From the sequence record PP461118.1: a stretch of DNA of 64,000 nt. The stretch is one strand, 5' to 3'. Below are positions 7,820-8,605 of this stretch, piece by piece (within the stretch, counting starts at the first letter, position 1; every line of letters starts with the position of its first letter). The translations under genes and the position numbers were made by a program. This DNA is from Enterobacteria phage ECP2307. The notes under the pieces were generated by a model that worked only from the letters and a program-made list of their open reading frames with translations, ran no database searches and was not told the origin of the DNA.

Positions 7820-8605
7820 TTAGTTCTTTGCGTCTAAGAAGGTTACTTCCGGTGATGAGAAAATTTCCTCGACATTCTCATCAGTTCTTGCATAGATGTA
7901 GGTGTCTGCATCGCTACCAAATGTCACGGCAATTCTGTGATTGCTCTTCGACAGGTGGGTAACTAGAGCGTTACTTAGAGACATCTTTTCAACCGGAGGG
8001 TTACTTTGATGTATCTTACCTTTTCTTCGTCTGAAGAGGGTAACTGCGTTATCTGTGAACGTTACTACACCTGCAAAGTATTCTGGTTCACAGTAGTTCT
8101 TCCAACCTGAGCGTAACTTGTGGTACATCTCTCCTTCGTAGACATACAGATACACATCTACACTCTTCATCACCTGATTAATGATGACTGTGACGGCTTG
8201 AGAGTCTAGTCCACCGATACCTGCACCAATCATAGGTAACCCAACTTTCTTCAACTGATTAACTTCACAGTATCTGTTAAGCTGTTTCAAAGATGACTCT
8301 AAAGCACTGTATCGGGCATCTTTACCAGTCTTAAGCTGAGTGTAAAGGTTAGCTATACGGCCTTGTTCTAAACGTGCTACAGAGAAATTGCCTAGTAAAT
8401 TTTCACAGGGTTTGTGACCTATGCCACCTGCATACAGATAAACTTCTGTATCGGTCTCATATGCTTTTGGGTAAAGTTTGGAAATCTTGTCAGCGATACC
8501 TGCACCCATTAAGTTCATACAGTTGCAACCGTGACCAATGATATCAAACTTACCTTTATCAAATGCGGAGAAGATATCCCCATTGATGATTTTTACAATA
8601 CCCAT
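7820..8605 (-). CDS. macro-domain (ADP-ribose binding/hydrolase-like) protein with about 100-aa C-terminal extension of unknown function
   Basis: N-terminal GDI..GHGCNCMNLMGAGIA, PMIGAGIGG and VYLYVYEGEMY match macro-domain signature blocks. Confidence 0.7.
   Translation of the reverse strand: MGIVKIINGDIFSAFDKGKFDIIGHGCNCMNLMGAGIADKISKLYPKAYETDTEVYLYAGGIGHKPCENLLGNFSVARLEQGRIANLYTQLKTGKDARYSALESSLKQLNRYCEVNQLKKVGLPMIGAGIGGLDSQAVTVIINQVMKSVDVYLYVYEGEMYHKLRSGWKNYCEPEYFAGVVTFTDNAVTLFRRRKGKIHQSNPPVEKMSLSNALVTHLSKSNHRIAVTFGSDADTYIYARTDENVEEIFSSPEVTFLDAKN

Follow-up and report, generated by a model that had tools for sequence, protein, structure and literature searches.

The 64,000-nucleotide stretch of Enterobacteria phage ECP2307 that we analysed (sequence record PP461118.1; hereafter the window) comes from a Felixounavirus and carries, at positions 7820-8605, a gene for a macro-domain protein with an additional C-terminal domain. 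We give a probability of roughly 50% to the reading of this gene's product as an accessory counter-defence enzyme of the phage T4 Tk.4 (AdfM) type, in which a macro domain without the usual catalytic lysine is joined to a lineage-specific domain for partner binding or targeting, as judged from sequence comparisons. An initial annotation made from the letters alone had placed a macro-domain protein at these coordinates and had given no strand; the gene is a complete ATG-to-stop open reading frame (ORF) of 261 aa plus stop in the ORF list, occupying exactly 7820..8605 on the minus strand, and Pfam, profile and fold comparisons all support the domain call. The parts of the gene are as follows.

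7820..8605, minus strand: complete ORF, orthologue of Felix O1 ORF13 and of Bas63 gp95 (ORF list, identities and PHROG 335)
8135..8605, minus strand: macro domain, aa 1-157, of the Tk.4/AdfM type and TARG1/DarG/Poa1p-like (Pfam, profile matches to the Protein Data Bank (PDB), Foldseek and BLASTP)
8492..8536, minus strand: loop-1 motif GHGCNCMNLMGAGIA, aa 24-38 (alignments)
8336..8350, minus strand: NLYTQ motif, aa 86-90, which includes Q90 (alignments)
8210..8236, minus strand: loop-2 diphosphate-binding motif PMIGAGIGG, aa 124-132 (alignments)
7823..8134, minus strand: C-terminal orphan domain, aa 158-261, predicted by AlphaFold as a short linker helix, six beta-strands and a short helix

The macro domain takes up residues 1-157, and both of its ADP-ribose-binding loops are intact. 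The Pfam Macro model (PF01661) matched aa 25-141 with an expectation value (E) of 2.1e-7, over profile positions 2-117 of 118 and with 31.4 bits, which is above the gathering score of 22. We aligned 18 full-length homologues, the most distant at 32% identity, and a profile built from the same 18 sequences matched solved macro domains, namely TARG1/OARD1 (E 2e-11), the DarG proteins of Mycobacterium tuberculosis (Mtb; 2.4e-8) and Thermus aquaticus (Taq; 4.4e-7), TTHA0132 and Poa1p. Within this alignment H25 and N28 of loop 1 are invariant (18/18), and the segments MGAGIA (aa 33-38) and IGAGIGG (aa 126-132), invariant or nearly so, align with the DarG and TARG1 loops. Among the curated NCBIfam and PADLOC models, DarG was the sole significant match (NF048014, antitoxin_DarG, E 8.5e-13; PADLOC DarG, E 3.8e-13), confined to the macro half of those models. 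The AlphaFold model of the full protein (predicted local distance difference test score, pLDDT, 83.5; predicted template modelling score, pTM, 0.67) superposes on TARG1, on Taq DarG with ADP-ribose (5M3E) and on Poa1p with target-normalised template modelling (TM) scores of 0.7-0.8, and pLDDT in this apo model is low at aa 28-35, in the loop-1 region. Foldseek returned TARG1, DarG, Poa1p and viral macrodomains at probability 1.00 and target TM of 0.65-0.81, which predicts a three-layer alpha/beta/alpha macro fold; structure prediction with a Foldseek search had been proposed as a check by the initial annotation, and the predicted structure does keep the macro fold and both ADP-ribose loops. 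The three "signature blocks" to which that annotation had pointed are all present in the translation, at aa 24-38, 124-132 and 151-161. Two of them, GHGCNCMNLMGAGIA and PMIGAGIGG, are indeed the conserved ADP-ribose-binding loops, whereas VYLYVYEGEMY is merely the last macro beta-strand plus linker and no signature.

The connection to counter-defence comes through T4 Tk.4, which is the closest homologue to have been studied. A tblastn search found the macro domain in ~2,800 phage records, including T4-like Tk.4 proteins at ~34% identity, and BLASTP against T4 Tk.4 itself aligned the whole macro domain (aa 3-157 with 2-152) at 34% identity and E 2e-23. The two proteins have in common the motifs HGCNC...(M)GxG(I/V)A, NLYTQ and P-x-IGAGIG and a glutamine at the position of the DarG lysine, and both are products of non-essential genes of virulent enterobacterial myophages. 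They differ in that Tk.4 is a single 155-aa domain whereas the ECP2307 protein, at 261 aa, has an extra folded C-terminal domain of 104 aa; their genome neighbourhoods are also unlike, and the genetic evidence of anti-DarTG2 activity concerns Tk.4 only. The single hit of a T4 transposon library screened on DarTG2 was tk.4, and a clean tk.4 knockout rendered T4 sensitive to DarTG2, for which the gene was named adfM, anti-DarT factor Macrodomain (preprint of November 2025, bioRxiv 10.1101/2025.11.20.689424). Of the two roles offered by the initial annotation, reversal of DarT-type modification is thus supported, through homology to T4 Tk.4 only, and removal of NAD-derived signalling products found no specific support.

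Phage PhiKZ gp104, likewise named AdfM, takes DarT2 adducts off DNA in vitro and protects chimalliviruses, with N23 and K78 as active-site residues (Morgan et al., Cell Rep 2026, PMC13309987). Like the ECP2307 protein it is a phage-encoded orphan macrodomain, and the asparagine is kept in both (N23 in PhiKZ, N28 here). Unlike it, PhiKZ gp104 is truly DarG-like, matching Mtb DarG at E 9e-25 and scoring 138 bits with the DarG model (48 for the ECP2307 protein); it keeps Lys78 where the ECP2307 protein has glutamine, and it is a single-domain protein imported into the phage nucleus. Bacterial DarG (Taq and Mtb; PDB 5M31, 5M3E and 5M3I) resembles the ECP2307 protein in its macro fold, its ligand loops and its layout of a macro domain followed by a second domain; the differences are that the ECP2307 protein lacks the catalytic K80, that its second domain is unrelated and that there is no adjacent darT gene, the neighbours being small phage ORFs, none of them annotated as a toxin and, where scanned, without a Pfam family. 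On sequence grounds, the protein is best placed in the Tk.4-type clade and outside the DarG family proper.

The second part of the protein, aa 158-261, had been left unassigned by the initial annotation, and this holds after structure prediction and exhaustive searches. Two AlphaFold runs agree on six beta-strands between a short helix and a short terminal one, with pLDDT of ~80-90. A BFVD structure search returned the protein's own family alone, Pfam gave no match for any of 15 homologous C-terminal sequences, and among PHROGs only PHROG 335 was found. An exhaustive HMMER search with a C-terminal profile over 1.84 billion representatives found the domain only fused to the same macro domain, two fragments aside; these apparently standalone proteins were read as fragments of the full-length gene, one of them (P0030) starting inside the last macro strand and the other (P0035) being 54 aa long and matching the last 54 residues of the domain. 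The profile also gave weak multi-stretch matches to beta-propellers of the pyrroloquinoline quinone (PQQ)/BamB type (PQQ_2 proteins; E 1e-4 to 7e-7), and hhalign to a PQQ propeller reached 60% probability over ~1.5 blades; this is a weak lead, with no Pfam PQQ match in 15/15 sequences.

Among isolated phages the C-terminal domain is confined to Ounavirinae (Felixounavirus, Suspvirus and Mooglevirus; 242 records). Metagenomic relatives with the synteny rIIB...PNKP...macro carry a shorter and very divergent version of it. The domain evolves 3-4 times faster than the macro domain, with identities of 51% vs 80% among closer relatives and of 17% vs 42% among distant ones. It is nevertheless under purifying selection, the Nei-Gojobori ratio of nonsynonymous to synonymous substitution rates (dN/dS) among six Felixounavirus genes being 0.07-0.46 for the C-terminal and 0.02-0.10 for the macro domain. 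Two metagenomic loci (L004 and L008) encode distant full-length homologues at 33-35% identity in the Felix O1 gene order of rIIB, a Dam-type methyltransferase, an SLT-like protein, a PNKP-like protein, small ORFs and the macro gene; they are uncultured Ounavirinae relatives in which the two-domain architecture is already in place. A metagenomic Felixounavirus relative (P0008, from a cluster of 15 sequences) has an allele of 179 aa (89% identity across the 65% of the query that aligned). This allele leaves the reading frame just past ...SGWK and reaches an early stop, so that it lacks the C-terminal domain; either natural truncation or a mistake in the assembly could explain it.

Under the proposed mechanism, a host DarT2 toxin would ADP-ribosylate thymidines in single-stranded phage DNA, and the macro domain would bind the adduct and remove, or at least recognise, the ADP-ribose, so that replication could continue. 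Catalysis would proceed by an arrangement other than that of DarG and TARG1, since the nucleophilic lysine is a glutamine throughout the Tk.4-type clade; candidates would be the invariant N28 together with the Poa1p-like H25/C29, or a substrate-assisted reaction. The C-terminal 104 residues, being lineage-restricted, constrained and fast-evolving, would most likely serve in partner binding or targeting and have no catalytic role, and the target may be the toxin, the replisome or the enzyme itself. The freed ADP-ribose could, as a speculation, be recycled by the NARP1 pathway of the phage.

Several points weigh against this assignment, some of them in the active site. We compared active-site residues in an HMMER alignment to TARG1, pairwise to PhiKZ gp104, and jointly with Tk.4, PhiKZ AdfM, both DarGs and TARG1. 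N28 aligns with Taq DarG N22 and PhiKZ AdfM N23, so that the asparagine is kept, but Q90 sits at the catalytic lysine of DarG (K80), TARG1 (K84) and PhiKZ AdfM (K78), and G131 at the position of TARG1 D125; the K84/D125 dyad of TARG1, otherwise the best match in sequence and structure (E 2e-11, TM ~0.8), is thus Q90/G131 here. The lysine matters in both relatives, DarG K80A being inactive and K84 being the nucleophile of TARG1, while N22 of Taq DarG is second in importance by mutagenesis (PMC5179494). Glutamine stands at the lysine position in every aligned Tk.4-type phage sequence, T4 Tk.4 included, which indicates a trait of the clade and not decay of the ECP2307 copy. Loop 1 has the H-x-C-N-C form that is found in yeast Poa1p (IIGHGCNCMNLMGAGIA aligns with ILIHSCNCNGSWGGGIA), and, going by the chain sequences, PDB 6LFS has alanine in place of the motif histidine of Poa1p. 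For the N-terminal segment I-x-H-x-C-N-C...G-x-G-I-A the best match is in fact Poa1p (E 0.005), but the similarity is confined to aa 8-56, and the Poa1p fold match (TM 0.71) is not above those of TARG1 or DarG. We conclude from these alignments that the ADP-ribose pocket is intact and that the protein cannot have the catalytic arrangement of DarG or TARG1; because the lysine of these enzymes is a glutamine here, the chemistry of the protein may differ from theirs.

The same assignment is weakened by the evidence from relatives and by the second domain. On NF048014 the protein scores 48.3 bits against an equivalog cut-off of 250 and covers model positions 4-153 of 338. The biochemically validated PhiKZ AdfM belongs to a separate, lysine-bearing subfamily (24% identity to the ECP2307 protein), for Tk.4 there is genetic evidence only, from a preprint (bioRxiv 10.1101/2025.11.20.689424), and our literature search linking Felixounavirus to DarTG found no paper. 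No relation of the C-terminal domain to the DarT-binding half of DarG could be detected, and the part given to this domain in the mechanism is inference throughout. Nor is there conservation of its net charge, which ranges from -5 to +4 among homologues; this argues against a conserved single-stranded DNA mimic or simple DNA binding; a conserved acidic mimic of this kind and a basic DNA binder were both considered for the domain and are unsupported. Homology to the DarT-binding domain of DarG was likewise considered and ruled out, as the DarG profiles stop before the domain and no fold match was found.

Among the alternatives, an ADP-ribosyl hydrolase or phosphatase acting on another substrate, such as ADP-ribose-1''-phosphate (the Poa1p-like activity to which the GenBank name points), O-acetyl-ADP-ribose, toxin-made protein-linked ADP-ribose or ADP-ribosylated RNA, is unlikely and yet deserves to be taken seriously. 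The top sequence and fold match, TARG1/OARD1 (human, ALC1-like), hydrolyses protein adducts and O-acetyl-ADP-ribose, Poa1p gives the best match to the N-terminal motif segment, and without the DarG lysine the substrate and mechanism are less constrained. The sole functional data for the clade, those on T4 Tk.4, nevertheless indicate DarTG2, and the name "phosphatase" in GenBank is inherited from an old A1pp domain label. We know of no source of ADP-ribose-1''-phosphate (Appr-1-p) described in phage-infected enterobacteria, and Appr-1-p phosphatase activity in vitro is a common side activity of macro domains. Reversal or tuning of the phage's own ADP-ribosylation would be a far less probable role still. 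It is imaginable for T4, the carrier of Tk.4, which encodes the three ADP-ribosyltransferases Alt, ModA and ModB, and many early proteins of Felix O1 are uncharacterised; against it, the Tk.4 phenotype depends on the defence system, and no ADP-ribosyltransferase is annotated in Felix O1 or was found among the scanned neighbours, no sensitive search having been made over all ORFs of the window.

The loss of both TARG1 catalytic residues (K to Q90 and D to G131) would also fit a protein that does not catalyse, whether a reader or sponge of ADP-ribose, its adducts or an ADP-ribose-derived immune signal, or a stoichiometric toxin neutraliser acting through the C-terminal domain. There are precedents in full-length DarG K80A, which still blocks DarT by protein-protein contact (PMC5179494), and in AdfB of phage ICP1, which opposes DarT through direct interaction, and the C-terminal domain evolves fast, as would suit a surface for binding a partner. 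We consider this explanation doubtful. Even very divergent phage homologues keep Q90, N28, H25 and C29 with little or no variation, a sign of an active site and not just of a binding pocket, and no similarity to known sponges or to the C-terminal half of DarG was found. Many active macro domains, of the MacroD type and of viruses, lack the catalytic lysine. An elaboration that unites catalysis with neutralisation, and that we hold to be rather improbable as it stands, is that the C-terminal domain is an independently evolved module for neutralising or targeting a toxin, for example by binding DarT2, so that the protein would be a two-pronged DarG mimic combining enzymatic reversal, by a lysine-less macro domain, with stoichiometric inhibition, by an unrelated second domain. 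The fast C-terminal evolution would then reflect an arms race with diverse DarT toxins, and ADP-ribose would feed NARP1.

Irrespective of the function, the gene is real and conserved, as shown by its full-length presence in ~240 Ounavirinae genomes and by a dN/dS well under 1 for each half. The 2.5-kb stretch around it matched 252 phage records at 93-97% nucleotide identity, nearly all of them Felix O1-like phages with hosts in Escherichia, Salmonella, Shigella and Citrobacter. The protein shares 96% identity with Felix O1 ORF13 (NP_944801, "phosphatase"), described in its record as "hypothetical 17.5 KD protein in tk-vs intergenic region", a reference to T4 Tk.4, and 97% with bas63_0095 (gp95 of BASEL phage Bas63); other records label it "macro domain-containing protein" or "O-acetyl-ADP-ribose deacetylase". 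With these records and the PHROG 335 match, which covers the full length of the protein (E 5e-112), both the gene and its macro domain are already in databases. GU169904.1 (Staphylococcus phage SA1) and one "Campylobacter" record contain the Ounavirinae-specific C-terminal domain at ~88% identity, and these records are probably Felix O1-like contamination or mislabelling.

Knockout data are available for the Bas63 orthologue. In the PhageMaP knockout screen, gene 95 ("putative phosphatase") had fitness values of +0.6 to +1.1 and is therefore non-essential; the hosts were laboratory strains and the Gao-2020 defence panel, in which DarTG is not included. Such dispensability is what a conditional counter-defence gene would show when its cognate system is missing from the panel. 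The window also holds, ~8 kb from the macro gene, two minus-strand ORFs (16094-17875 and 17922-18818) with 98% and 96% identity to Bas63 gp80 and gp79, which are annotated as NAMPT and phosphoribosyl pyrophosphate (PRPP) synthetase and are by experiment the NARP1 pair Namat/Adps. NARP1 (Adps + Namat) rebuilds NAD+ from ADP-ribose and nicotinamide and so defeats NAD-depleting defences. Judging by these identities, ECP2307 carries a NAD-centred counter-defence module of a validated type.

The macro gene itself lies beside rIIB, in a block of small minus-strand genes with repeated promoter- and terminator-like cassettes, and its rIIB-proximal position would suggest early expression. Its start codon abuts the stop of an upstream ORF of 66 aa (TAAATG), an arrangement that suggests translational coupling of the two genes. 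The 66-aa protein (8606-8806, minus strand) has two cysteine pairs (CKDC...CEGC), is zinc-ribbon-like and matched no Pfam family. A conserved partner gene at this place was ruled out, as the abutting 4-Cys protein has no homologue in distant relatives: L004 has a small 4-Cys protein at the same place that is not detectably homologous, and L008 has none there. One further feature was found downstream by consensus scan only.

7749..7790, minus strand: terminator-like hairpin with a T-run, 30 nt past the macro stop codon

The ORF-poor gap of ~490 nt downstream of the macro gene had no Rfam match when examined for structured RNA. It contains four copies of ATTTYCRNNNYGTGCAG in the same orientation (7571-7587, 7616-7632, 7655-7671 and 7728-7744, minus strand) and there are none elsewhere in the window, for which the chance expectation is 0.23 copies in all. 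Felix O1 and phage pEP20 have two exact copies at the corresponding position. Proteins may bind at these copies, or the copies may belong to a transcript that is not annotated. Further along, a cassette of ~92 nt recurs in copies that are 84-98% identical (4527-4618, 6202-6293, 6549-6640 and 7019-7110; partial at 5630-5653 and 7311-7334), each just upstream, on the minus strand, of one of a succession of small ORFs, and a second cassette type occurs at 4007-4092, 4873-4958 and 5598-5622. The 92-nt cassette comprises a GGGGCTT...AAGCCCC hairpin, a promoter-like site (TTTACA-17-TAAAGT) and a ribosome-binding region, and it runs into the start codons, so that ORFs 6293..6565 and 6637..7035 both begin MENLKMA. 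The cassettes look like reiterated promoter/terminator units.

In its domain architecture the macro protein is a variant of a kind of counter-defence protein described only recently, and its gene was already annotated; neither the glutamine-for-lysine site nor the extra domain overturns current understanding. It would matter more if the C-terminal domain binds a toxin or if the glutamine-for-lysine site has a new chemistry. The Tk.4-type clade, including the protector of T4, has no counterpart of the lysine essential to DarG and TARG1, which implies that its chemistry or mode of action departs from that assumed, and to this macro domain the Ounavirinae have added a constrained, lineage-restricted domain, much as DarG pairs its macro domain with a toxin-binding one. 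Felixounaviruses are common phages of E. coli and Salmonella that are used in typing and biocontrol, and the genus holds the tractable model Bas63. If the reading as an anti-DarTG2 factor is true, the protein would be a second NAD/ADP-ribose-centred counter-defence module alongside NARP1 in these phages, and it would help to predict their host range on DarTG-carrying strains.

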